A DNA stretch of 64,000 nucleotides from an uncultured Bacilli bacterium (GTDB lineage Bacteria; Bacillota_I; Bacilli_A; RF39; UBA660). The position numbers and the translations under genes were made by a program. The stretch spans positions 136,067-200,066 of the forward strand of contig CAKOXW010000001.1 in assembly GCA_934130375.1 (NCBI GenBank), written 5' to 3'. How positions within the stretch are numbered: the stretch's first letter is position 1; each line of letters begins with the position of its first letter. This document shows, piece after piece, positions 1,484 to 50,898 of the stretch. A model generated the notes under the pieces. It did no database searches, was not told the DNA's origin, and saw only the letters and a program-made list of their open reading frames with translations.

Positions 1484-1741
1484 ATGGGTTTAGAAGATAA
1501 GATTAGAAGTGTTATTGAAGAAAAAGTTAATGAAATTGGTATTAATATCGTATCAATTAAATATGAAAAAGAAAATGGAGTTAACTATTTAAGAATATTT
1601 ATTGATAAAGAACCATTTATAAATATAGATGATTGTGTTAAAGTAACTGAGATAGTTAATCCAATTTTAGATGAGTATGATTTTATAGATGAGCAATATA
1701 TGCTTGATATATCTTCAATAGAAAAAGGAGGGAATTTATAA
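1484..1741 (+). CDS. rimP: Ribosome maturation factor RimP, short form (N-terminal domain only, 85 aa)
   Basis: Sequence FIDKEPFINIDDCVKVTEIVNPILDE matches the RimP N-domain. Stop overlaps the nusA ATG (ATAATG). Conserved position before nusA. Confidence 0.6.
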   Translation: MGLEDKIRSVIEEKVNEIGINIVSIKYEKENGVNYLRIFIDKEPFINIDDCVKVTEIVNPILDEYDFIDEQYMLDISSIEKGGNL

Positions 1742-2820
1742 TGAACAAAGAAGAATTTATTAAGGCTGTTGATTTTGTTGCGAAAGAAAAAGGTATTTCT
1801 AAAGATATTATTTTTGAAGCAATGGAGTTAGCATTATTAACTGCTTATAAGAAGAATTTTGATTCTAAAACTAATGCGAGAGTTGATATTAATCGTGAGA
1901 CTGGTGAGATTAAGGTTTATAAAGTATTAACTGTTGTTGATAGTATAGATGAAGAAGATCCAGAAGCATATGCGAAAATATTAGAAAGTGATGCGGATAA
2001 GATAGTAAAGGGTATTAAAGTAGGTGAAACTATTGAAGAAGAGATTACACCTAAAGATTTTGGTAGAGTAGCAACTTCTACTGCTAAGCAAGTTATGACA
2101 CAGAAATTAAGAGAAGCAGAAAGAGAAAGTATTATGTCTGAATTTGAGGGAAAGCAAGATGAGTTACTTGTTGGACAAGTTTCAAGAGAAGATGGTTTAA
2201 ATTACTATATTGATTTAGGTAGAGCACATGGTATTTTACCTAAGAAGGAATTAATACCAGGTGAGAAAATTGAAATGGGCTCTTCAATTAAAGTATATGT
2301 TACTAAGATTGAGGATTCAAAAGGACCACTTATCTTGTTATCAAGAAATCATTTTGGATTTGTTAAAAGATTACTTGAGCATGAAGTACCTGAATTTGCA
2401 GATGGTACAGTAAAACTATATAGTGTTGCAAGAGACGCTGGTTCAAGAAGTAAAGTTGCTGTTTATTCTGATAATCCAAGAGTTGATGCGATTGGAGCAT
2501 GTATTGGTGAAAAGGGTAGTAGAATTGCTAATATAATGAAGGAATTAAATGGTGAGAAGTTAGATATAGTATTGTATGATAAAGATCCAGTTAAATTTAT
2601 TAAAAATGCACTTAGTCCTGCTAAGGATGTTAATGTTCTAATTATGGACCCAAAAGAAAATGCAGCGCTTGCAATTGCAGATGGTGAACAATTATCACTT
2701 GCAATTGGTAAGAAAGGTCAAAATGTAAGGCTTGCATCTCGTTTAACTAAATATAAAATTGATGTTAAGACAAGTGCTGAATTAAAAGATATGGGTATAA
2801 ATATTGGCTTTGAGGGATAA
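1741..2820 (+). CDS. nusA: Transcription termination/antitermination factor NusA
   Basis: N-terminal NusA domain, S1 and two KH domains recognisable (GRVATSTAKQVM..., GACIGEKGSRI..., AIGKKGQNVRLASRLT). Operon context is nusA-ylxR-infB-rbfA. Confidence 0.95.
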   Translation: MNKEEFIKAVDFVAKEKGISKDIIFEAMELALLTAYKKNFDSKTNARVDINRETGEIKVYKVLTVVDSIDEEDPEAYAKILESDADKIVKGIKVGETIEEEITPKDFGRVATSTAKQVMTQKLREAERESIMSEFEGKQDELLVGQVSREDGLNYYIDLGRAHGILPKKELIPGEKIEMGSSIKVYVTKIEDSKGPLILLSRNHFGFVKRLLEHEVPEFADGTVKLYSVARDAGSRSKVAVYSDNPRVDAIGACIGEKGSRIANIMKELNGEKLDIVLYDKDPVKFIKNALSPAKDVNVLIMDPKENAALAIADGEQLSLAIGKKGQNVRLASRLTKYKIDVKTSAELKDMGINIGFEG

Positions 2821-37363: not shown

Positions 37364-37473
37364 AAATCTTTCCTCCTTTTTAGCGGATTTCCTTTATCAA
37401 TTGTACCTTAAATATTTAAATAAGTCAATTGTTATCTTACTAAAAATTTGTTAAAATATAAATGGAGGCATTT

Positions 37474-40332
37474 ATGAATTATATTCCACTTAGAGTAAAA
37501 ACTAGTTATTCGTTTTTAAAATCTTTAAATGATATTAAAAAGATGGTTTCATACTGCAAAGAAAAAGGTATTGAAGCATGTGCGATATGTGATGATAATA
37601 TGTTTGGTGTTATGGAGTTTTACAAGGAATGCATCAAAAATGATATAAAGCCAATAATAGGTATGGAACTTTCAATTGATAATGGGTTTGTTATTTTGTA
37701 CGCAAAAAACTATGCTGGGTATCAAAATTTAACTAGAATTACATATGCTATGCAAAATACTCCTATTAGTCTTGATATTCTAAGGAAGTATTGTAGTGAT
37801 TTAATATGTGTTACTAACTTAAGTATTGATTTTTATGATGATATATATTATGGATATACGAACTCTAAGGATAGGGATTTAAATAAGAAATGTGTATATG
37901 TTCCTGTAATACTATGTTTAGAGAAAGATGATATTAAGTATTTAAAGTATTTAGATTTAATTAAAAAAAATAAGAAGTTAAAAGATTCAGAACCATTTTT
38001 AATTCATAGTAATTGTTACTTTGATTTTAACTCTATTGATTATGAAAATGCATATGAAATTGCTAGTAAGTGCAATATAACATTTGAGGTTAATAAAAAT
38101 TTATTTCCTAAGTACGAGTGTAAGAATGCTAAGGAGTATTTGTTTAATTTAGCAAAAAATGGGTTATTTAAGAGATTTGATGGTAAAGTTACTAAGAAAT
38201 ATTATGATAGGTTATTATATGAATTAGATATTATTGATAAGAATAATTTTAATGATTATTTTTTAGTAGTATTTGATTATGTTAGATATGCTAAGAAGCA
38301 AGGTATTTTAGTAGGTCCAGGTAGAGGTAGTGCAGCGTCTTCTTTAGTTGCGTATTCTCTTGGAATTACTGATGTTGATCCAATTAAATATAATTTATTA
38401 TTTGAAAGATTTTTAAATACAGAGAGGATTACACTTCCTGATATAGATATAGATTTTGAGGCTAATAGAAGAGATGAAGTAGTTAAGTATGTAATGGAAA
38501 AGTATGGATATAATAGGGCTGCTTGCATTATTACATTTACAACTCTTGCAAGTAAGCAAGTATTAAGAGATGTTGCAAGAGTATATGATATTGATACTCA
38601 CACTATTGATAGACTAGTTAAATATGTTCATAATAATTATTCACTAGATACATGTTTAGCTAATAAGAACTTACTTCTTTATTTGAAAGAAAATCCTAAG
38701 ATAGATGAGATATATAGAGTTGCTATGAAATTGGAAGGACTAAAAAGACAGTATTCTATACATGCTGCTGGTATAATAATAGGTGGAGATATTCTTAGTG
38801 ATTATATACCTATAATTAAGTATGGAAATTTTTACATAAGTGGTTATTCGATGGAGCACTTAGAAGAATTAGGTTTAGTTAAGATGGATTTTTTATCTCT
38901 TAAGAATTTAGATACTATTTTAAGTATAACAAAAAAAATTCCTAATGTTAATTTAAAAGAAATAGATTTAAATGATATGAAAACTTTATCTATATATACT
39001 AAGGCTTTGACTGGAGGTATATTTCAATTTGAATCTTATGGTATGAAACAATTTTTAAGTAAGTTAAGGCCTACTACTTTTGATGATATTGTTGCTGCTA
39101 TCGCTCTTTTTAGACCAGGTTGTGCTTCTTCAATTGATGCATTTATAAGAAGGAAAAACGGATTAGAGAAAATTGATTATATTGATCCTTCTTTAAAAGA
39201 TATCTTAGAAAGTACTTATGGAATAATTGTTTATCAAGAGCAAATAATGCAGATTGCTAATGTCATGGCGGGGTATTCGTATGGTGAGGCAGATGTGTTA
39301 AGAAGGGCTATGTCAAAAAAGAAAAAAGAAGTAATGGAAGGTGAAAGAGATAAATTCATAAATAGAAGTATTGAACATGGCTATAGTTATGAAACTGCTT
39401 TTAAAACTTATTATTTCATCTTAAAATTTGCTAATTACGGATTTAATAAAGCTCATTCAGTTGCGTATTCTATATTGTCAATGATGATGGCTTATTTAAA
39501 AGCATACTACAAAGAAGAATTTATGAGTGCTATATTAAATTCTTCAATTGGTATTGAAGATAAAACTATGGAATATGTATCAGAGTGTAGAAAATTAGAT
39601 GTTAATATATTAAAACCTAGTATAAATATAAGTGGTGTAGAGTATAAAAAATATCGTAATTCTATTATTGTTCCTTTATCTATAATTAAAAATGTTGGTA
39701 CTTTAAGTGCTAAAGAGATTATTAGAAAAAGAGAAAGTGGTGAATTTAAAAGCTTTAATGACTTTGTAAGAAGATGCTATTCAAATAATATTAATAAAAA
39801 AGTAATCGAAAGTTTAATTGATGCAGATTGCTTTTCTATGTTTGAATACAATCATAGTACACTTCATTATAATCTTGATGCTGTAATAAATTATGCAATG
39901 ATATCAAAAGAAATTGATGATGAGTTAATTAGTGAACCAATTTTAGAAGTAAAAGAAGAGTTTGATAAGAGTGAACTTTTAGAAAGAGAAAAAAATGTAT
40001 TTGGTTTTTATTTAGTAAATCATCCAGTTACTAAGTATAAATGTAATTATAATAATGTAGTAAGTAGTTCTGATATAGCAGCATATTTTGATAAATATAT
40101 TAATGTTATAGGTATGGTTGATAGTATTAAAACAGTTGAAACTAAGAAAGTAGAAACTATGGCATTTATTAGTCTTCAAGATGAATTTGGTGTGATGCAA
40201 GTTACGATTTTTCCAAAAGAGTATCCTAAAATTAAGAATATTAATAAAAATGATATTGTATTTATAAATGGAAAAGTTCAAAAACGTATGAATAGTTATC
40301 AAGTAATATTGCAAAATATAAAAAAATTGTAA
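37474..40332 (+). CDS. dnaE: DNA polymerase III alpha subunit DnaE (compact, ~950 aa)
   Basis: PHP domain N-terminus (PLRVKTSYSFLKS), polymerase core (GPGRGSAASSLVAYSLGITDVDP, LPDIDIDF), C-terminal OB fold. RBS GGAGG. Confidence 0.9.
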   Translation: MNYIPLRVKTSYSFLKSLNDIKKMVSYCKEKGIEACAICDDNMFGVMEFYKECIKNDIKPIIGMELSIDNGFVILYAKNYAGYQNLTRITYAMQNTPISLDILRKYCSDLICVTNLSIDFYDDIYYGYTNSKDRDLNKKCVYVPVILCLEKDDIKYLKYLDLIKKNKKLKDSEPFLIHSNCYFDFNSIDYENAYEIASKCNITFEVNKNLFPKYECKNAKEYLFNLAKNGLFKRFDGKVTKKYYDRLLYELDIIDKNNFNDYFLVVFDYVRYAKKQGILVGPGRGSAASSLVAYSLGITDVDPIKYNLLFERFLNTERITLPDIDIDFEANRRDEVVKYVMEKYGYNRAACIITFTTLASKQVLRDVARVYDIDTHTIDRLVKYVHNNYSLDTCLANKNLLLYLKENPKIDEIYRVAMKLEGLKRQYSIHAAGIIIGGDILSDYIPIIKYGNFYISGYSMEHLEELGLVKMDFLSLKNLDTILSITKKIPNVNLKEIDLNDMKTLSIYTKALTGGIFQFESYGMKQFLSKLRPTTFDDIVAAIALFRPGCASSIDAFIRRKNGLEKIDYIDPSLKDILESTYGIIVYQEQIMQIANVMAGYSYGEADVLRRAMSKKKKEVMEGERDKFINRSIEHGYSYETAFKTYYFILKFANYGFNKAHSVAYSILSMMMAYLKAYYKEEFMSAILNSSIGIEDKTMEYVSECRKLDVNILKPSINISGVEYKKYRNSIIVPLSIIKNVGTLSAKEIIRKRESGEFKSFNDFVRRCYSNNINKKVIESLIDADCFSMFEYNHSTLHYNLDAVINYAMISKEIDDELISEPILEVKEEFDKSELLEREKNVFGFYLVNHPVTKYKCNYNNVVSSSDIAAYFDKYINVIGMVDSIKTVETKKVETMAFISLQDEFGVMQVTIFPKEYPKIKNINKNDIVFINGKVQKRMNSYQVILQNIKKL

Positions 40333-40374
40333 AATATAGAGTGATATGTTATAATTGAAAATAGAGGTGAATTT

Positions 40375-41913
40375 ATGAATTCGAAAGATAAAATAATTGC
40401 TATAATATTAACAATATTCGTATCAATTATTTGTTTAATACCAATATATGATTTTAAAATATATGCTAAAGAGACACCTAAATCTTTATTTAAAGTATAT
40501 TTAAATGGTAAAAGTATTGGAGTTATTGAATCTAAGGAAAAGTTAGAAAATTATATAAATAATGAACAAAAAGATTTAAAAGAGAAATATAATGTTGATA
40601 CTGTATATGCACCTGCTGGTTTGTATATCGTGCCTTATACAACTTATAATGATACTGTTGTAGATGAAAAATATATATATGATGCTATAAAAGAAACTGA
40701 GAAGTTTACTATTAAAGGTTACGAGATTACTATTGCTAAGGATGATACTGAAGATACAAAAGGAAATGATACTGATATTAGTGCACAGAGTACTAAGAAA
40801 GAAGACAATACAAATGAAGATATAAAATTTTATGTATTATCTAAAGATGACTTTAAGAATGCAGTTTCAAATGTTGTGAAGGCATTTGTTAATGCTGATG
40901 ATTTAGAAGCTTTTTTATCTGGTGAAGATATTGTTATTAAAAATATAGGTAATAAAATAGAAGATTTATATATTAAAGAAGATATAACTATTAAAGAAAA
41001 ATATATTCCTAGTGATAAAAAAATATATTTAGATGAAAAAGAAATTACTAAGTATTTGCTTTTTGGTAAAGATATTGAAGAAAAGAAGTATAAAGTAAAA
41101 GCAGGAGATACAATTGAGAGTATTGCTGAAAATAATAAACTTGCCGTAGAAGAATTATTAGTTGTTAATCAAAATTTAAAGAGCAAAAATAATATTTTAT
41201 CTATTGGACAAGAAATTTCAGTAGCACTTATTTCTCCAATAATAACTGTTGTTGAAGAAGAACATAAAGTAGAAGAAAAGGTAATCGCTTTCTCAACTAC
41301 TGTTGAATATGATAGTTCTATGGTATGGGGTGCTACAAAGATAAAACAACAAGGTAAAGATGGAAGTCAAATAGTTACTCAAAAGATTAAGTATGAAAAT
41401 GGTGAGATTAAGCAAGCATTAATTACTGATACTGAACTTGTAGAAGATGTTATAAATCAAGTAAAAGTAATTGGTACTAAAAATAACTTTGTTGTTGATC
41501 CATCAGATATTCCTACTTCTGGAGATTGGTTTTGGCCAACTTTAAAACCATTTATTATATCAAGTGGATATGGATGGAGATGGGGTGTTCTTCATGATGC
41601 TAATGATATAACTGGAACAGGACATGGTTCTCCAATTTTTGCAGCTAATAATGGAATTGTAAGTAAAGTGTTCTACGATGGTATAGGCGGATATCAAATT
41701 ATTATTGCGCATGATGGTGATATATATACTTGGTATGCTCATTTATCTGCTCAGTATGTTAGAACTGGTCAAGAAGTAAAAGCAGGAGATAAAATTGGTG
41801 CTATGGGATGTACAGGTTCTGCTTGTACAGGTACACACTTACACTTTGCAGCATATAGAGGAAAACCAGGTGCAGGTGGAGTATCATTTGATTCATTAAA
41901 ATTGTATAGATAG
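40375..41913 (+). CDS. M23 family metallopeptidase with LysM and G5 domains, N-terminal TM anchor
   Basis: LysM (KVKAGDTIESIAENNKL), G5 (VEYDSSMVWG...GKDGSQIVTQKIKYENGE), M23 motifs HDANDITG and THLHF. Confidence 0.75.
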   Translation: MNSKDKIIAIILTIFVSIICLIPIYDFKIYAKETPKSLFKVYLNGKSIGVIESKEKLENYINNEQKDLKEKYNVDTVYAPAGLYIVPYTTYNDTVVDEKYIYDAIKETEKFTIKGYEITIAKDDTEDTKGNDTDISAQSTKKEDNTNEDIKFYVLSKDDFKNAVSNVVKAFVNADDLEAFLSGEDIVIKNIGNKIEDLYIKEDITIKEKYIPSDKKIYLDEKEITKYLLFGKDIEEKKYKVKAGDTIESIAENNKLAVEELLVVNQNLKSKNNILSIGQEISVALISPIITVVEEEHKVEEKVIAFSTTVEYDSSMVWGATKIKQQGKDGSQIVTQKIKYENGEIKQALITDTELVEDVINQVKVIGTKNNFVVDPSDIPTSGDWFWPTLKPFIISSGYGWRWGVLHDANDITGTGHGSPIFAANNGIVSKVFYDGIGGYQIIIAHDGDIYTWYAHLSAQYVRTGQEVKAGDKIGAMGCTGSACTGTHLHFAAYRGKPGAGGVSFDSLKLYR

Positions 41914-41921
41914 GAGAATAT

Positions 41922-42797
41922 ATGAAAAAAGCTTTATTAATATTATTAAGCATAATGATGCTTACTGGTTGTGGTGGTAATAAAAATGAGCAAACAACAG
42001 AGCCAAAACAATTACTACATATCAGTGATTATTTTAAAGATAAAGGTATTAATAATATTGGTACTTTAAAATGTAGTGCACTAAATAATGAAAAAATTAT
42101 GTATGCAAATTATGCACTTAATTACTTCATTTTAGAAAATGGTGATACATACAAATTTGTATATGGTGGTAATAAGATTTATAGTAATAATGAACAATGT
42201 ATGAAGATTACTACAAATGTAAAAGTTAAAACATTTAAGTATAAATATTTTTTAGGAACTGATGGTAATTATTATAATATTACTATTGATAATGATGATA
42301 TTAAATTAGAAAAAGTAGAGTTAAGTGGATATGATGCAACATTGTATAATGATACAAGTGTAATTAATTTTACAAGTACAACTGTTCCTGATAGTTATAC
42401 TGCACAAAGAGGTTGGTATTCAGCGTACTATGTTTTAAAAAATGATGGAATTCATAATTTAATTATATTAAGTTCTTATAATAATACAGGAACTCTAAAT
42501 TATCAAATAGTTAATGATGAAATTCTATATAAGAAAAGTGATTATGGAAATATTAAGAGATTTGAAACTACATATAAAGAAGGTATAACATTAATCTTAT
42601 CTGATACTGGTTTATATATTAAAGAAGAAGTAAAAACAGAAGAATGTAGTAAATATGCAGATATTAAATGTGAAACAAAAATGGTAAATAATGAGTTATA
42701 TCAAAAATATAAAAATGATATTAAATATGTAGATAGTTATAGAATTATTGCTGATGATAATGGTTTTTATACAACAAGTTATTTGCTAGTTAAGTAA
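41922..42797 (+). CDS. Hypothetical lipoprotein
   Basis: Lipobox LTGCGG. No other recognisable domain. Confidence 0.45.
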   Translation: MKKALLILLSIMMLTGCGGNKNEQTTEPKQLLHISDYFKDKGINNIGTLKCSALNNEKIMYANYALNYFILENGDTYKFVYGGNKIYSNNEQCMKITTNVKVKTFKYKYFLGTDGNYYNITIDNDDIKLEKVELSGYDATLYNDTSVINFTSTTVPDSYTAQRGWYSAYYVLKNDGIHNLIILSSYNNTGTLNYQIVNDEILYKKSDYGNIKRFETTYKEGITLILSDTGLYIKEEVKTEECSKYADIKCETKMVNNELYQKYKNDIKYVDSYRIIADDNGFYTTSYLLVK

Positions 42798-44076: not shown

Positions 44077-44259
44077 AATAACCTCCAGTTATGATAAACA
44101 TAATAAATATGTATTTTAATTATATCAAATAAAGACGTATAATACAAGTAGATGGGAGGGAAATATATGATAATAGATATATGCGAAAAGTCTGGATGTG
44201 ATAAAAGTACTTCAGCAAGTACTTTAATGAAGAAAACTAATATTAAGGAGAAAATAAAC

Positions 44260-45243
44260 ATGGAAAATTATAAATCATCACCACAAGTTTGGTTAGAAAA
44301 GCAAGTTTTTGAAGATAAATCAGCAATGGATACACTTAATAGATTATATTTTGATAATATAATAAAACCATATAGAGAAAGTGATAAAATTATTGATTTA
44401 CATACACACACAAATTATTCGGATGGAGATTTATCTCCTTATGAATTGATAAGATTGGCTATAGAAAAAAGAGTTGGAATACTTGGAATAACGGATCATG
44501 ATACATTGGATGGAATAAAACAAATTGATAAAACTAATTCATTAATAGTTGATAGTGGTATACAAATTATTGATGGAGTTGAACTTTCTGCAAAAGTTTC
44601 TAAAGGAAGAATGCATATACTTGGATATGATATAGACATTAATGATGTTAATATTAATAAAGAAATGGAAAAAATAAAAGATAATAGTATTAATTCAGTT
44701 TTATCAATAATGGAACAGATAAAAAGAGATTATGGCATAGTTTTTAAATATAGTGATATAAAAGAATTGGTAAATTCTAATCAAAATTTAGGAAGACCTG
44801 ATTTAGCCAAATTATGTGTAAAATATGGATATGCTTCATCAATACAAGATGCTTTTGATAAGTATTTAATAGAAGCCTACAATAAAACTAGAAGTACAAG
44901 TAAAGGATTATCTTATCAAGAATGTATAGAATTAATATTACAAAGTAAAGGAATTCCAATTTTAGCGCATCCAAAATCTTTAGAACTTCCAGAAAAAGAA
45001 TTTTTAATATTATTAAAAGAAATGATAAACTCGGGATTAAAGGGTATTGAAGTTTATCATTCTAGTCATACGAAAGAGGAAATAAAATATTATTTAGAAA
45101 TTGCAAATAGATATGACTTATTAATTAGTGGTGGTAGTGATTATCATGGTAAAACTATTAAACCTGATATTGAATTGGGTACAGGAAAAAATAATGGAAT
45201 TAGAATTAAAAAATTATCTTTACTTGACAAATTGAATAAATAA
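44260..45243 (+). CDS. PHP domain phosphoesterase (TrpH/YciV-like)
   Basis: DLHTHTNYSDG, GITDHD motifs. Start chosen at MENYK with AAGGAGAAA RBS (the track start at 44152 lacks an SD). Confidence 0.65.
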   Translation: MENYKSSPQVWLEKQVFEDKSAMDTLNRLYFDNIIKPYRESDKIIDLHTHTNYSDGDLSPYELIRLAIEKRVGILGITDHDTLDGIKQIDKTNSLIVDSGIQIIDGVELSAKVSKGRMHILGYDIDINDVNINKEMEKIKDNSINSVLSIMEQIKRDYGIVFKYSDIKELVNSNQNLGRPDLAKLCVKYGYASSIQDAFDKYLIEAYNKTRSTSKGLSYQECIELILQSKGIPILAHPKSLELPEKEFLILLKEMINSGLKGIEVYHSSHTKEEIKYYLEIANRYDLLISGGSDYHGKTIKPDIELGTGKNNGIRIKKLSLLDKLNK

Positions 45244-45504
45244 CATTTGAAAAATAATAAGAAATAATATTGCATTTAGCTGAATGCTTAAGGTCTAGAT
45301 ATACTATATTCACGTATCAAATAGTAAAAAACAAGTTCATATTTTATGGGCTTGTTTTAATTTTATACTCCGAAAAATACTTTTTAAAAAATCTTTTTAT
45401 GTAAAATTAGTATTTCTACAATATGTAGAGAAAAAAAGTATGTTTATTATGCTAAGATTTAATTGTAGAAGTGATTTATAATTTATAAATAACGGAGGTT
45501 AAAT

Positions 45505-47613
45505 ATGGCATTTGTATATAAAAAAGAAAAAAATTCATTAATAGTAGATGACCCAATATACGGAGAAATAATTGTTCCTTATCCTTTTTCTGAAATAGTT
45601 TTAACAAAAGAAATGCAAAGATTATCAGGGATATCACAAAATGGTTTTTCACAACTTGAATATAAAGAACTTGAGAATAATGATAGATTAAGTCATAGCG
45701 TTGGTGCTTTTTACGTAATGTCATTATTTTTGAATAGATTAGAAGAAATCTTAAAAAGTTTTAATATTAAACTTAGCAAAGATGATAAAGATATTGCGTT
45801 ATGTTCTATGTTACTGCATGATATAGGGCACGGACCATTTTCTCATACATTAGAATTGGTAACTAATTACTCACATGAAAAACGTACTACAGACATTTTG
45901 CTTGGAGATACAGAGGTTAATAAAGCAATAACAAAGTTCTTTGGAGAGAAAAAAGTTAAAAAGATTGCAAGTTTTATAGCAGAGATTAATGATAGTCAAG
46001 AATTAGGTACGGATAGTTTTACAAAATTGCTTAATAATTTAGTTTCTTATCAATTAGATGCGGATAGAATTGATTATTTAATTCGTGATGCATATTATGT
46101 TGGTATTTCTTCTGCAATAGATTTAAAGAAAATAATTTCAAGTATGGGTGTTGTTGTAAATAATAATCAAGAATATGAATTACTAATTGATAGAAAGGGT
46201 CTTGCAAGTGTAGAAAATGTTTTATTGCAAAGATACCAAATGTATAGAGATGTGTATTTAAGCCCAATTTCAGTTTTAGGAGATTATATATTTAAAAAGA
46301 TTATTGAACGATATAGAGATAATACAAAGTTGCATACTTTACCTGTTTCAAAAAGTTTAAAAACATTAGTTAGTGATACAATGGTAAGTAATTTAAATGA
46401 TTTTTTAGAGATGAAAGATGAAGATTTTAATATTTCTTTTAAAATGCTATCTAAATCAAATTTAGATACTGTTATGTCTTACTTATGTGATTTTGATAAT
46501 ATAAAAGACTATATTTTAATTAAGAATGATGTTTCTGAAGAAAAAATCAAAACAAAATTAAAAGAAATATTTGGTGATATTGATTTAAGTGATACATTAT
46601 CAATAATAAGTATTGATACTAAAACAAAATTATATAAAAAGGAACAAAAATTAAATGTTCAAAATGGAAATAGAATTATGGATTTAACTGAATGCACAAA
46701 TTTAATAAGGCCACAAGAAGAATTAGAAAATACATATATTTTCTTTAACCCTGAATTACTTAGATTAGAACTTGGTTTAAGTGATAAAGAATTTAAAAAA
46801 TATGAAAGCGAGGTAATAAAAATGATTGAAGAATTAAATAAAAAACCTGAAGAATTTGAATTAAAATATATAATTGATGAAAAAGATACTGAAGACTTAG
46901 ATAAAGAAACTTTGATTAATAAGATTATTTCTGTTTTTAAGACTAATGGTTTTAAAATAGTTTCAGTAACAGAAAAACAAAATAATGATGAATATTATGA
47001 TACTAGAGATTTAAAATTATATAAAAATGGTGGGTCACTTAGAATAAGAAAGGTTGAACAAAAAGGAAAAGAGAAAATAAAAGCCACTTGCAAAATGCCA
47101 CTTGGAAAAGGTGAAGTTTATTCATCAAGAAGTGAAATTGAAGAAACATTAGAAGATGATAGTTTTGATGAATTTATGCAAAAGATGATTAGTTCTAAAG
47201 TGAATGTTAACTTTGATGACATATTAAGATTTCCTATATTAAATTCTCGTACAAAAAGAAAAGATATAGTATTAGATAAAAACGGAGTTCAAGTATGTTT
47301 ATCATTTGATACTACCAAGTATACTAACCATCTTTTAAATGATGCTACAACAACTGATAAAATGATTGAGATTGAAGCAATTGGAGAACTTAACAATAGA
47401 ATTATTCTTAATGAAATACATGAATTTATCGCATCTTCTTTTAGTAGTTTAGAAGTAAATAAACAAAGTAAATACGAAAGAGGTATTAATCGTACTTTAC
47501 AACTATACAATAATTTAGAAGAAAACCAATCTATGGAAGAGTATTTTTCAATACCAACTTATGCATCTCTATCTAATGCTGATGCTTTAGTTAAAAAACT
47601 AAAACATGTTTAG
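45505..47613 (+). CDS. Fusion protein: HD-domain dNTP triphosphohydrolase-like N-terminal region (aa 1-~430) + CYTH (triphosphate tunnel metalloenzyme) C-terminal domain (aa ~450-660)
   Basis: HD: RLSHSVGAFYV...LLHDIGHGPFSHTLE...DADRIDYLIRDAYYVG. CYTH: EFELKYII (ExExK), YYDTRDLKLYKNGGSLRIRK, MIEIEAIGE. RBS ACGGAGG. Confidence 0.7.
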   Translation: MAFVYKKEKNSLIVDDPIYGEIIVPYPFSEIVLTKEMQRLSGISQNGFSQLEYKELENNDRLSHSVGAFYVMSLFLNRLEEILKSFNIKLSKDDKDIALCSMLLHDIGHGPFSHTLELVTNYSHEKRTTDILLGDTEVNKAITKFFGEKKVKKIASFIAEINDSQELGTDSFTKLLNNLVSYQLDADRIDYLIRDAYYVGISSAIDLKKIISSMGVVVNNNQEYELLIDRKGLASVENVLLQRYQMYRDVYLSPISVLGDYIFKKIIERYRDNTKLHTLPVSKSLKTLVSDTMVSNLNDFLEMKDEDFNISFKMLSKSNLDTVMSYLCDFDNIKDYILIKNDVSEEKIKTKLKEIFGDIDLSDTLSIISIDTKTKLYKKEQKLNVQNGNRIMDLTECTNLIRPQEELENTYIFFNPELLRLELGLSDKEFKKYESEVIKMIEELNKKPEEFELKYIIDEKDTEDLDKETLINKIISVFKTNGFKIVSVTEKQNNDEYYDTRDLKLYKNGGSLRIRKVEQKGKEKIKATCKMPLGKGEVYSSRSEIEETLEDDSFDEFMQKMISSKVNVNFDDILRFPILNSRTKRKDIVLDKNGVQVCLSFDTTKYTNHLLNDATTTDKMIEIEAIGELNNRIILNEIHEFIASSFSSLEVNKQSKYERGINRTLQLYNNLEENQSMEEYFSIPTYASLSNADALVKKLKHV

Positions 47614-47644
47614 TGTTATTTAACCTAAGCCATAAATAAAAATA

Positions 47645-47674
47645 ACTCGAGTACAATATTCGAGTTTTAATTTT
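47645..47674 (+). terminator. Hairpin actcga-gtacaatat-tcgagt + TTTAATTTT after the HD-CYTH gene
   Basis: Read directly. Confidence 0.4.
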
Positions 47675-47729
47675 AAGCATTGCAATAGCAAATTTAAAGA
47701 AATTATTATATAATTAATATGGTGGTTGT

Positions 47730-48371
47730 ATGAATATATTGCTTGTTGAAGATAATCTAGGTATACAAAAAGGACTTAGTTATTCACTTACTAAAAATAA
47801 CTACAATGTAATAGTTAAATCTAGTATAAAAGATACTAAAACATATCTTGAAGATAATAAACCAAATCTAATTATATTAGATATCGCGTTACCAGATGGT
47901 AGTGGTCTAGATTTATATAAAGATTATATTAAATCCTTAAATATAAATACCATTTTCTTAACTGCAGATGATAATATAGACAATATTGTTTTCGCGCTTG
48001 ATACCGGGGCATGTGACTATATTACTAAGCCTTTTGAAGTTAGAGTACTTATTGCTAAAATAAATAGAATTTTATCTAATAAAAGTCTTGTTATAAACGA
48101 TATAGTATTTGATATTAATAAAATGGAAGTATTTAAGAATGACAAGGTAGTAAGTTTAACTAGTTTAGAGAAAAAAATACTTTTCTTATTAGTGTCTAAT
48201 AAAAATAAAGTAGTTACAAGAGAGAACTTGATAAATTATATATGGGAACTTACTGGTAACGATGTATACGATAATACGATTACAGTTTATTTAAAAAGAA
48301 TTAGAGAAAAACTTGATACTGATATAATAAAAACAATAAAAGGTATAGGATATAGAATAGATGAAGAGTAG
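47730..48371 (+). CDS. OmpR-family response regulator
   Basis: Receiver (LLVEDN, LDIALPDGSG, KPF) plus winged helix. Confidence 0.8.
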   Translation: MNILLVEDNLGIQKGLSYSLTKNNYNVIVKSSIKDTKTYLEDNKPNLIILDIALPDGSGLDLYKDYIKSLNINTIFLTADDNIDNIVFALDTGACDYITKPFEVRVLIAKINRILSNKSLVINDIVFDINKMEVFKNDKVVSLTSLEKKILFLLVSNKNKVVTRENLINYIWELTGNDVYDNTITVYLKRIREKLDTDIIKTIKGIGYRIDEE

Positions 48372-49542
48372 TAATATAAAGTACATAATTTTATTCTCCA
48401 TAGTATTATTTATTACAGCCTTAATAAATGTGTGCGAGTATAATACTTATAGAATTAACTATAATAACAAAATTTCAAGTATAATTGAATTAGTAGTAAG
48501 TAAGTATCAAGATATTAGTAAAGAAGAGATATATAATATTATTAATAATAAAAGTGATAAGTCTAATGTATTAAAAGAATATGGAATATATGATGATATA
48601 GATAACTTAGTAATTGAGAATGAGAATAAATATACATTTTATTTAGTAGTTAATTTAATGTTAGTTGTTATATTATTTATAATATTCTATATAATTATAT
48701 TTAAAGATAAGTATTTATTTAATAAAAATATTAATAAATTAACTAAATACTTTAGTGAGATAAATAATGGTAATTATGATATAGATATTAATGATAATAA
48801 AGAGAATAATTTATCTATATTAAAAAATGAGATATATAAAACAACTATAATGCTTAAAGAACAAGCAAGTAATTCTAAGAAGGATAAGGAAGAATTAAAA
48901 GTAATGTTAGAAGATATATCACATCAATTAAAGACCCCTCTAACAGCAATTAATATTTATATAGATAACCTACTTGATAATGATATAGATTATAAAACTA
49001 GAAATGAATTTCTAAAAGAAATAAAGAAAGATATAAATAATATGAATTTCTTAATATTAAATTTACTTAAACTATCAAAGTTTGATACTAATACTATAAA
49101 GTACGAGATTAAGAAGTACAAGGTAGATAGTATTATTAGTAAAGTAATTAATAATTTAAGTTATTTAAGTGATTTAAAGAATATAAATATAAATGTTATT
49201 GGTGATAAGAATATAGTATTAAATTGTGATTATAGATGGGAAGTAGAAGCTATTAGTAATATAGTCAAGAATGCTTTAGAACATTGTTATTCTAAAGTAG
49301 AAATTAGTTATAAAGAATATAAATCATATGTAGAGATAAGAATTATTAATGATGGAGATACTATCAATAAGAAAGATATTAAGCATATATTTGATAGATT
49401 TTATAAAATATCTAATGATAAAGATAGTATTGGTATAGGTTTAGCGTTATCTAAAAGTATTATAGAAAAAGATAATGGTAAAATTAATGTTATAAGTGAT
49501 AATAATAGTACAATATTTGAAATAAAGTATTATAAATATTAG
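48361..49542 (+). CDS. Sensor histidine kinase (two TM segments flanking a ~65-aa extracytoplasmic loop)
   Basis: H-box ISHQLKTPLTAINIY, HATPase_c (NDGDTI, GIGLAL). Overlaps the RR stop. Confidence 0.75.
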   Translation: MKSSNIKYIILFSIVLFITALINVCEYNTYRINYNNKISSIIELVVSKYQDISKEEIYNIINNKSDKSNVLKEYGIYDDIDNLVIENENKYTFYLVVNLMLVVILFIIFYIIIFKDKYLFNKNINKLTKYFSEINNGNYDIDINDNKENNLSILKNEIYKTTIMLKEQASNSKKDKEELKVMLEDISHQLKTPLTAINIYIDNLLDNDIDYKTRNEFLKEIKKDINNMNFLILNLLKLSKFDTNTIKYEIKKYKVDSIISKVINNLSYLSDLKNININVIGDKNIVLNCDYRWEVEAISNIVKNALEHCYSKVEISYKEYKSYVEIRIINDGDTINKKDIKHIFDRFYKISNDKDSIGIGLALSKSIIEKDNGKINVISDNNSTIFEIKYYKY

Positions 49543-49546
49543 TTTT

Positions 49547-50146
49547 ATATGTATTCTTGGGCTTTATTAGTTTATATTACATTTATAAAAGAATTACAAA
49601 AAAGTAATTCTTTTAAACTTATATATTAAAGATTATATAGTTTTATATTATTTTGAATACAAGTAACATCCAGTTAAAAATAGCTAAAAAGTAGTTATTT
49701 GATATAAAATGTTAAAAACTTTGTAAATTTTCGTCAAAAATAGGCCTGAAAAACGCCTCCGCCCATTGCCAAATGGGGGGGGGTGTTATGCTATAATAAT
49801 TACATAAAATAGAGGAGGAAATTTATGAAGAAAAAGAAGGGTTTTACTTTAGTGGAATTATTAGCAGTAATAGTTATTTTGGCAGTTATACTAATTATTG
49901 CAATGCCAAAAATAAGTGATGTAATTAAGAATTCTAAAGAAGCATCATTAGAAACAACTGCAAAGTTAATAGCAAGTCAAGCAGAGAAGAAATATACTGA
50001 AAATCAAGTATTAGATGGTAGTAGTACAATAAAATGTAGTGATGTTGCTAAGATAAATGATGCTGACTATGAAAGTTGTAATATTACTTTTGATGATAAG
50101 GGTAATGCAAAAGTATCAATAGTAGGTAAGGGTAAGTTTGAAGGTA
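49547..50146 (+). repeat. Cassette C: ~600 bp near-identical to cassette B (31717-32288)
   Basis: See cassette B. Encoded N-termini differ at only a handful of residues over ~107 aa. Confidence 0.7.
49775..49783 (+). repeat. G9 homopolymer between TTGCCA (49766-49771) and TATAAT (49792-49797)
   Basis: Counted directly. Spacer is 20 nt. Confidence 0.8.
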
Positions 50147-50898
50147 TGGCTGTATGCAATGCTAATAAGAATAGTGCATCTATATCTAGTGATTGTTCAA
50201 CAAATGCATCTTATTTTACATATGAGGACACTACTATAGTAACTAACGTTATTGTTGAAGATGCGAATAAGTGCAAGAGTTATATTCAAACAAAGCATTT
50301 AACTGAAGAACAAGCAACAACGTTGTGTACTGAAGGTTCAATAACAATTGGTGAATCTACTGGTTCGTTAAAAGATTTAGTTGTAGTTGGTGCGATACCA
50401 TCAAGTGATTATGAGACAGTAGGATTAAGAATAGAAACAAAAGATGGTATATCAATAACTGGTTATAATATAGAAGGAGGAACTGATGTAGTAATACCAT
50501 CACAAATAGATGGCAAGACAGTTGTTGCTATTGGAGATAATACAAGTGATGGTCTAGGAATAACTTCAGTGGTAATACCAAATTCAGTGACAAGCATAGG
50601 TATGAATGCATTTAGATGGAACAAATTAACAAATGTAACAATTCCATCAAGTGTTAAAACAATAGGTCATAGTGCATTTAGAGGGAACAAATTAACAAAT
50701 GTAACAATTCCTAGTAGTGTTATTTCAATAGATTACTATGCTTTTAATAGTAATCCAAATATTGTAATTACCAATAATTCGAGTATTGAAAATACACAAG
50801 ATGTTTGGGATAAAATTTTAGGAATAGACGGGTCATGTTCTCCGAAAGTAACTATAACAAATAATATTATTGAAATAGGTGTGGGACCTAATTGCTAA
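49825..50898 (+). CDS. Modular type IV pilin-like protein 3 (pilin module + Cys-containing linker + BspA-type LRR module)
   Basis: Same prepilin N-terminus. Shares internal blocks SITGYNIEGGTDVVIPSQIDGKTVVAIGD and GLGITSVVIPNSVTSIG with protein 2 (mosaic). LRR-type repeats NKLTNVTIPSSV. Confidence 0.7.
   Translation: MKKKKGFTLVELLAVIVILAVILIIAMPKISDVIKNSKEASLETTAKLIASQAEKKYTENQVLDGSSTIKCSDVAKINDADYESCNITFDDKGNAKVSIVGKGKFEGMAVCNANKNSASISSDCSTNASYFTYEDTTIVTNVIVEDANKCKSYIQTKHLTEEQATTLCTEGSITIGESTGSLKDLVVVGAIPSSDYETVGLRIETKDGISITGYNIEGGTDVVIPSQIDGKTVVAIGDNTSDGLGITSVVIPNSVTSIGMNAFRWNKLTNVTIPSSVKTIGHSAFRGNKLTNVTIPSSVISIDYYAFNSNPNIVITNNSSIENTQDVWDKILGIDGSCSPKVTITNNIIEIGVGPNC

Follow-up and report, generated by a model that had tools for sequence, protein, structure and literature searches.

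What might explain why an uncultured gut bacterium encodes, in one polypeptide, a hydrolase of the kind that releases inorganic triphosphate (PPPi) from deoxynucleoside triphosphates (dNTPs) and a tunnel of the kind that binds triphosphate? The question is raised by a gene in a 64,000-nucleotide stretch, hereafter the window (positions 136,067 to 200,066 of contig CAKOXW010000001.1, assembly GCA_934130375.1), from an uncultured Bacilli bacterium of the RF39 lineage. A sequence-only reading of this DNA had placed the open reading frame (ORF) exactly where we find it, with 702 encoded amino acids, and had assigned an HD and a CYTH domain to the product. Those assignments hold, since the Pfam HD, HD_assoc_2 and CYTH families all score above their gathering cutoffs and every motif that it quoted is present (Table 1). 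The answer that we favor, with slightly better than even confidence, is that this HD-CYTH protein is a bifunctional enzyme, whose HD domain would make PPPi from dNTPs and whose CYTH domain would hydrolyze it; what we infer is which substrates the two domains use, that PPPi passes from one to the other, and what the protein does in the cell.

The HD half is predicted, by sequence and by structural model alike, to be a complete dNTP triphosphohydrolase (dNTPase) core of the SAMHD1/EF1143 type. In a phmmer search of the PDB it matches EF1143 (2o6i/3irh/4lrl, 2e-27), for which two of the entries contain bound dGTP together with dATP or dTTP, BT4208 (2q14, 4e-27) and the Aquifex protein 2hek (8e-24), with fungal SAMHD1 at 2e-14, human SAMHD1 at about 1e-11 and E. 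coli Dgt barely detected (E 0.23). The metal ligands H64, H105-D106 and D187 align to identical EF1143 residues in the phmmer alignment, and R61, H64, H105, D106, H109, H114, H124, E125, D185, D187, Y191, D195, R243 and Y251 are identical to EF1143 and invariant in 48 homologues. The extended dNTPase motifs RxxH, HDxGHGPxSH, H-E, DxDRxDYxxRD and RYQxY are present and conserved, as is R188, and none of the 26 fusion sequences scored, among them the query, has lost an HD catalytic residue. A full-length AlphaFold2 model, a monomer built on 48 homologues (predicted local distance difference test (pLDDT) 84.8, predicted template modelling score (pTM) 0.75), was compared with solved structures by Foldseek. 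Over model residues 1-440/460 the TMt values are 0.72-0.77 for EF1143, 0.77-0.79 for BT4208, 0.80 for 2hek and 0.61-0.67 for SAMHD1, and the superposition on the bacterial dNTPases (2o6i/4lrl/2q14/2hek) spans about 440-460 columns, which is the whole catalytic core including the C-terminal lobe. Few parts of the model have low confidence (pLDDT <50); one is the invariant QMYRDVY segment of the core (aa 245-251, window 46237-46257), which may be a loop that becomes ordered only upon substrate binding or oligomerization.

A Dgt-type dGTPase was also considered for this half and rejected. The NCBIfam model for Dgt-type dGTPase, TIGR01353, scores 21 bits against a cutoff of 152, and the anti-phage dGTPase models NF041026 and NF003701 score 18.6 bits (cutoff 400) and 17.1 bits (cutoff 383), with all of these matches limited to the HD motif at aa 59-124. 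The PADLOC dGTPase model gives a weak match of 22 bits over 64 residues (aa 60-123), again to the HD motif only. Because the Dgt-type models match nothing beyond the HD motif, and do so far below cutoff, the HD half is read as SAMHD1/EF1143-type and not Dgt-type.

For the C-terminal half, a single-sequence phmmer search of the PDB gave no match, so that its kinship to solved triphosphate tunnel metalloenzymes (TTMs) is visible by profile or structure only. The Pfam CYTH profile PF01928 covers aa 480-610 with 34.7 bits in the whole protein and 37.7 bits (E 2.4e-9) in the C-terminal half alone, the gathering cutoff being 23.2; a domain search of both halves therefore calls CYTH, and the C-terminal half is not the ordinary C-terminal extension of a dGTPase. 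A separate model of aa 430-702 (pLDDT 87.8, pTM 0.82) exhibits eight long β-strands and a long C-terminal helix, that is, the tunnel fold with its C-terminal plug helix. Foldseek ranks E. coli YgiF in complex with triphosphate and two Mg ions first (E 1e-10), SaTTM second and AtTTM3 next. YgiF is a specific inorganic triphosphatase (PPPase; PMC3440374), in which metal site 1 is formed by E160 together with the triphosphate, E4, E6 and E162 make up metal site 2, where the attacking water is activated, R56 is the catalytic arginine and K69 a substrate-binding residue (PMC4641920). When ygiF of E. coli K-12 was aligned to the family profile (hhalign, single-sequence template), the probability was low (19.7%, E 0.0012); nevertheless, the register agrees with the independent structural ranking. 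In that register E4, E6 and E162 of metal site 2 align to E450, E452 and E624, E160 of metal site 1 to E622, the catalytic R56 to R513 and the substrate-binding K69 to K530, which are the six residues tied to metals or substrate by mutagenesis or structure (PMC4641920). The other tunnel residues are paired as K8 (of ExExK) with K454, R58 with R515, R81 with R542, E83 with E544, R126 with R585, D143 with D602, K191 with K656 and R194 with R659. All 14 are invariant in a 48-sequence alignment of the window protein and homologues down to 50% identity.

Could the tunnel act on nucleotides instead, either as a nucleoside triphosphatase like CthTTM and SaTTM or as a class IV nucleotidyl cyclase, giving parallel (d)NTP consumption or a signaling output? 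SaTTM, the second-best Foldseek match, was co-crystallized with ATP (7nsd), and the sequence of a TTM is a poor guide to its specificity (PMC8233210). However, true class IV cyclases need an HF pair four residues before ExExK, in the arrangement HFxxxxExExK (PMC8233210), and this position in the HD-CYTH protein is L444-N445 (L444-N445-K-K-P-E-E450). An NCBIfam search of the C-terminal half at E <= 1 gave no match, TIGR00318 (cyaB) included, and identity with the class IV adenylyl cyclase CyaB was rejected on these two grounds. The recurrent fusion to PPPi-releasing dNTPase clades, described below, also fits better with PPPi as the metabolite that the two domains have in common, and we consider a nucleotide-directed tunnel very unlikely. 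Given the invariant residues, YgiF as the top structure, and the lack of both the HF motif and a cyaB match, the C-terminal half is read as a predicted catalytically complete, YgiF-like triphosphate tunnel.

The proposed bifunctional enzyme would then work as follows. The HD domain would hydrolyze a dNTP to deoxynucleoside and PPPi, and the YgiF-like tunnel would cleave the PPPi to pyrophosphate (PPi) and phosphate (Pi) with two metal ions, the mechanism being the one established for YgiF and AtTTM3: E622 would hold the metal-triphosphate complex, E450, E452 and E624 the water-activating metal, and R513 would act on the leaving group. One polypeptide could in this way degrade dNTPs without releasing PPPi, a strong Mg/Ca chelator, and its physiological role in this uncultured low-GC (guanine plus cytosine) gut Firmicute would most likely be control of the dNTP pool. 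That SAMHD1-type enzymes release PPPi is stated in passages of PMC5207538 and PMC5318888. The domain identities, the folds and the conservation of catalytic residues are the observed part of this mechanism. The coupling of dNTP cleavage to PPPi disposal, which the sequence-only reading had put forward, is the best-supported mechanism and gains weight from independent CYTH-dNTPase fusions arranged differently (HD-CYTH-CYTH, HD-HD-CYTH, and the reverse order with a Dgt-like HD domain).

With the CYTH half as query, an exhaustive search recovered 120 representative clusters among 1.84 billion proteins, so this CYTH subfamily is small. Architectures assigned to the representatives by domain hidden Markov models are HD-CYTH (24 representatives, plus the query, L001 and L003; about 670-730 aa at full length, with a few shorter fragments), HD-CYTH-CYTH (three, P0148, P0156 and P0158; about 910 aa), HD-HD-CYTH (one, P0217; 1566 aa), several multi-CYTH proteins, and many stand-alone CYTH proteins of 205-250 aa, fragments included. 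In P0217, a fully canonical CYTH domain (1345-1563) comes after two SAMHD1-like HD modules (~10-325 and 890-1337). Distant HD-CYTH fusions are encoded in metagenome-assembled genomes of Clostridia (L002, 26% identity) and Treponema (L003, 27%). The reverse order, CYTH then HD, occurs in P0214 (660 aa) and P0225 (850 aa); the HD domain of P0214 carries RLSHS...HDIGHVPFSHTLE, and the best NCBIfam matches of both HD halves are Dgt-type dGTP triphosphohydrolase models, at sub-threshold scores. This points to CYTH having been fused, independently, to another clade of dNTPases. The strongest comparative argument for triphosphate as the shared metabolite is that CYTH has been joined to PPPi-releasing dNTPases from two clades, in either order. 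A scan of contigs was dominated by Bacteroidota HD-only dNTPases, and no census is drawn from it.

Several points weigh against coupling through PPPi. E. coli can do without YgiF, its bulk PPPi hydrolysis being the work of ordinary pyrophosphatase (PMC3440374), so a dedicated PPPase is not obviously needed. The substrate specificity of a TTM is not readable from its sequence. No HD gene lies alongside the stand-alone CYTH relatives P0123, P0125 and P0129, a small sample of three loci. The literature searched contains no paper that characterizes an HD-CYTH fusion biochemically, and none that ties dNTPase-derived PPPi to CYTH enzymes. The tunnels themselves were scored at fifteen positions across the representatives. 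All fifteen are kept in the window protein, L001 and several others. In seven single-CYTH fusions (P0128, P0134, P0142, P0147, P0177, P0181 and P0236) the metal-site-2 glutamates are replaced, E452 by K or Q and E624 by K, I, Q or R; most of the seven still have the tunnel arginines and lysine, with K at the R513 position in P0147, and the site-1 glutamate is kept except in P0147 and P0177, which are more broadly degenerate. The proximal CYTH domain is degenerate in all three HD-CYTH-CYTH proteins. Of their distal domains, that of P0148 is fully canonical, that of P0158 is altered (E452 to K), and that of P0156 aligns only in part. In every degenerate-CYTH fusion the HD residues are intact. 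From these sequences the HD-adjacent tunnel, kept even when degenerate, appears to have a non-catalytic role, for which binding, scaffolding and allostery are candidates.

These degenerate and duplicated tunnels, next to intact HD domains, are what one would expect if CYTH were mainly a triphosphate-binding regulatory module that senses PPPi, or the triphosphate of a (d)NTP, and controls the HD dNTPase allosterically, with catalysis secondary. Such a module might provide product feedback, or stand in for the (d)GTP allosteric sites of SAMHD1/EF1143. We regard regulation as the main function of CYTH as unlikely, since the window protein and 47 homologues, down to 50% identity, show no variation at any catalytic CYTH residue, as expected of an enzyme, and the closest structure is that of an active PPPase; the regulatory and catalytic roles are, moreover, not mutually exclusive. 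Because all tunnel residues are invariant to that depth, the catalytic reading of the window protein still stands.

A second CYTH protein accompanies the fusion in a sister clade. In nine loci (L084, L091, L092, L093, L112, L115, L116, L117 and L123), where the HD-CYTH protein is 64-82% identical to that of the window, a 243-247 aa protein with an XRE-type helix-turn-helix (HTH) and a CyaB-like CYTH domain is encoded directly before the HD-CYTH gene. In loci that show the ends of both genes, 1-14 nt separate them; the flanks are otherwise unrelated, and the HD-CYTH gene has its Shine-Dalgarno sequence inside the 3' end of the partner gene or just past it. The two genes are predicted to form an operon. 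The partner passes the NCBIfam cyaB model TIGR00318 (91 bits versus a cutoff of 58), keeps ExExK, RxR and ExE, and has N-F where cyclases have H-F; its CYTH domain belongs to a different subfamily from the HD-CYTH tunnel. We hypothesize that the partner is a ligand-sensing repressor of the operon. The partner gene is absent from the window (tblastn, nothing below E 5). A bolder proposal can be built on it: the tunnel would be the regulatory center of a dNTP-depletion module complete in itself, binding PPPi or NTP and feeding back on the HD domain, the upstream XRE-HTH-CYTH protein of the sister clades would switch the operon by sensing the same class of ligand, and the mobile two-gene unit would be an unrecognized nucleotide-depletion system against phage or stress. 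It would explain the persistence of a proximal CYTH domain without catalytic glutamates and the second, intact CYTH domain of P0148; we think it unlikely.

Does the family, then, serve in defense? It may, and the suggestion is that the fusion is an anti-phage dNTP-depletion effector analogous to defense dGTPases and SAMHD1, its CYTH domain making depletion irreversible or non-toxic, which is compatible with the chemistry of the bifunctional enzyme. The neighbors of HD-CYTH genes in other lineages are unrelated to those of the window, and since close relatives (76-81% identity) lie in unrelated neighborhoods, the HD-CYTH gene moves. Defense or mobile genes lie near the fusion in L084/L085 (SIR2_2, DUF87, ResIII/SNF2 and an N6_N4 methyltransferase), in L094 (SbcC-like, JetD-like of the Wadjet type, Mob_Pre and a serine recombinase) and in L115, and in the species of L084 and L115 the region downstream of the HD-CYTH gene differs between strains. 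The PADLOC dGTPase match points the same way, but it is the weak one confined to the HD motif, and the NCBIfam anti-phage dGTPase models fall as far below their cutoffs as described above. Most other loci, the window included, are without such genes, and most of the other contexts are housekeeping (PcrA/LigA, UvrA/SecA, UvrC, DapAB and ThyX/Tmk). By locus, the neighbors are PcrA and LigA in L086, UvrA and SecA in L087, MgsA, ThyX, Tmk and UvrD in L091, tRNA synthetases, SepF and DivIVA in L092, sortase and IleS in L095, UvrC and AgrB in L119, and a RelA_SpoT-domain gene with DapAB in L120. The full-length fusion was not found in IMG/VR, INPHARED (phage) or PLSDB (plasmid), where HD-only relatives cover <=50% of the query. 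The window gene itself is flanked by housekeeping genes (DnaE and RNase HIII), with native GC content and no mobile genes adjacent, and on balance we judge an anti-phage role improbable. In L120, about 550 bp separate a 55%-identical HD-CYTH gene from the divergent RelA_SpoT-domain gene upstream of it (small alarmone synthetase-like; 1485-2549, minus strand), the single case of another nucleotide-polyphosphate enzyme beside the fusion.

In the window, DnaE lies upstream; a PHP phosphoesterase gene resembling TrpH/RNase RNM, the HD-CYTH gene and a two-component system follow one another, with RNase HIII downstream. The sequence-only reading had described an island-like context, which is not supported: GC content is 24.9% in the HD-CYTH gene and 26.2% in the window, no integrase is nearby, terminator-like hairpins flank the gene on both sides, and the PHP, LysR and two-component genes are absent beside HD-CYTH genes in every other lineage examined. 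A genomic island and a functional unit with the PHP gene were both rejected for these reasons. The two hairpins, in the intergenic regions on either side, are the only ones in 3.8 kb, where a consensus scan would expect 0.6, and the HD-CYTH gene is predicted to be a stand-alone transcription unit. The product of the PHP gene (44152-45243) is like 3',5'-nucleoside bisphosphate phosphatase and RNase RNM (TrpH/YciV type); its scores of 152-160 bits fall short of the cutoffs of 375-400, and the match begins at about residue 80, leaving the first ~79 residues unmatched. An Rfam scan of the window gave tRNA-Met only. Between the two-component system and an orphan response regulator sits a gene (49825-50898) that fuses a type IV pilin-like N-terminal methylation motif (KGFTLVELL) to LRR_5 repeats.

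A 100% identical HD-CYTH protein is read on 15 gut-metagenome contigs, most of which share the gene arrangement of the window, and its MAFxY N-terminus is common to homologues in the alignment. On one contig with the identical protein (L082), a 628-aa gene without a Pfam match (100-1986) lies upstream of the LysR gene, a place taken in L081 and the window (37462-42797) by DnaE, an M23 peptidase, a lipoprotein and tRNA-Met; the region left of LysR varies between strains. A metagenome co-assembly contig (L111, 1-2575) is 90-93% identical to window 44956-48697 and lacks window 45551-46738 (~1.19 kb). The gap covers HD residues ~16-411, what remains is a CYTH-only ORF in another frame than the original start, and the contig may represent a real deletion variant or an assembly artefact.

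Table 1. Features of the HD-CYTH gene in the window, and positions of the XRE-HTH-CYTH partner gene in sister-clade loci.
Feature	Locus	Position	Strand	Basis or remark
HD-CYTH gene	window	45505..47613	+	ORF list; 702 codons + stop; ATG start
GGAGG, Shine-Dalgarno-like, 6 nt before ATG	window	45494..45498	+	read directly in sequence
Predicted SAMHD1/EF1143-type dNTP triphosphohydrolase core, aa 1-440	window	45505..46824	+	phmmer vs PDB, Foldseek, invariant residues
Pfam HD match, aa 62-157	window	45688..45975	+	PF01966, 31.2 bits vs cutoff 22
Pfam HD_assoc_2 match, aa 205-403 (C-terminal lobe of dNTPase core)	window	46117..46713	+	PF19276, 23.7 bits vs 23.1
CYTH / triphosphate tunnel metalloenzyme domain, aa 445-665	window	46837..47499	+	
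C-terminal tail, aa 666-702	window	47500..47610	+	poorly conserved; pLDDT <50 at 679-690
Terminator-like hairpin + T-run between PHP gene and HD-CYTH gene	window	45328..45358	+	consensus scan
Terminator-like hairpin + T-run, 31 nt past HD-CYTH stop codon	window	47644..47666	+	consensus scan; sequence read
Partner gene	L084	7250-7987		
Partner gene	L091	7255-7998		
Partner gene	L092	7265-7999		
Partner gene	L093	5255-5986		
Partner gene	L112	1-552		
Partner gene	L115	5930-6667		
Partner gene	L123	49-792		
Partner gene, 3' end	L116	1-42		
Partner gene, 3' end	L117	2-187		

The finding of an HD-CYTH protein is real and well formed, and its architecture is already catalogued. The sequence-only reading did not count it among described architectures, and in this it was mistaken: a passage of PMC8233210 attributes the fusion of CYTH to HD hydrolase domains to Iyer & Aravind 2002 (BMC Genomics 3:33), and more than 100 clusters are annotated with both domains. 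When the same fusion was sought in other genomes, PF01928 and PF01966 were found precomputed on nearly all of the best 120 homologue clusters, with identities down to 51%, and the NCBI names among the named clusters are 'HD domain-containing protein [Bacilli bacterium]' and 'CYTH domain-containing protein [Clostridia bacterium]'. The architecture has thus been on record for two decades, the chemistry of each half is well known, and no existing knowledge is overturned.

If the coupling is true, it would be a Rosetta-stone link, in which dNTP triphosphohydrolases are a physiological source of PPPi and CYTH/TTM enzymes a dedicated sink. In the TTM literature it is uncertain where cellular PPPi comes from, or even whether it exists (PMC3440374), and the coupling would address this point. 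The same paper discusses PPPases as 'metabolite proofreading' enzymes and never mentions dGTP. It would also offer for study an enzyme from gut Firmicutes that converts a dNTP to nucleoside, PPi and Pi in one polypeptide. The degenerate-CYTH variants and the HTH-CYTH partner provide a route to a possible regulation of dNTPases by their own product, and are the parts most worth following up.

How does the HD-CYTH protein compare with known systems? The HD hydrolase-CYTH proteins credited to Iyer & Aravind 2002 have the same superfamily pair in one polypeptide; the citation, as given in that passage of PMC8233210, speaks for the pair and not for the SAMHD1-type subfamily, the domain order or coupling through PPPi. 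CyaB and YpAC-IV, class IV adenylyl cyclases, share with it the CYTH fold and ExExK. The anti-phage dGTPases (Dgt-type; NF041026, PADLOC dGTPase) are likewise HD-superfamily dNTP triphosphohydrolases from which the same chemistry is expected, but they form a different HD clade and match it only in the HD-motif region, at 17-22 bits. E. coli YgiF (CYTH-CHAD, 5a60/5a61) has 17% identity, a C-terminal CHAD domain and no HD domain, whereas in the HD-CYTH protein the tunnel lies C-terminal to the dNTPase and the Pfam scan finds no CHAD domain, its partner being HD. EF1143, BT4208, Aquifex O67745 (2hek) and SAMHD1 share the whole core fold with the N-terminal 440 residues, together with the motifs RxxH, HDxGHGPxSH, H-E, DADRxDYxxRD and RYQMY, at identities of only ~21-26% in the Foldseek alignments. 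EF1143-type enzymes end after the HD core and SAMHD1 adds an N-terminal SAM domain, whereas the HD-CYTH protein continues into a CYTH domain.

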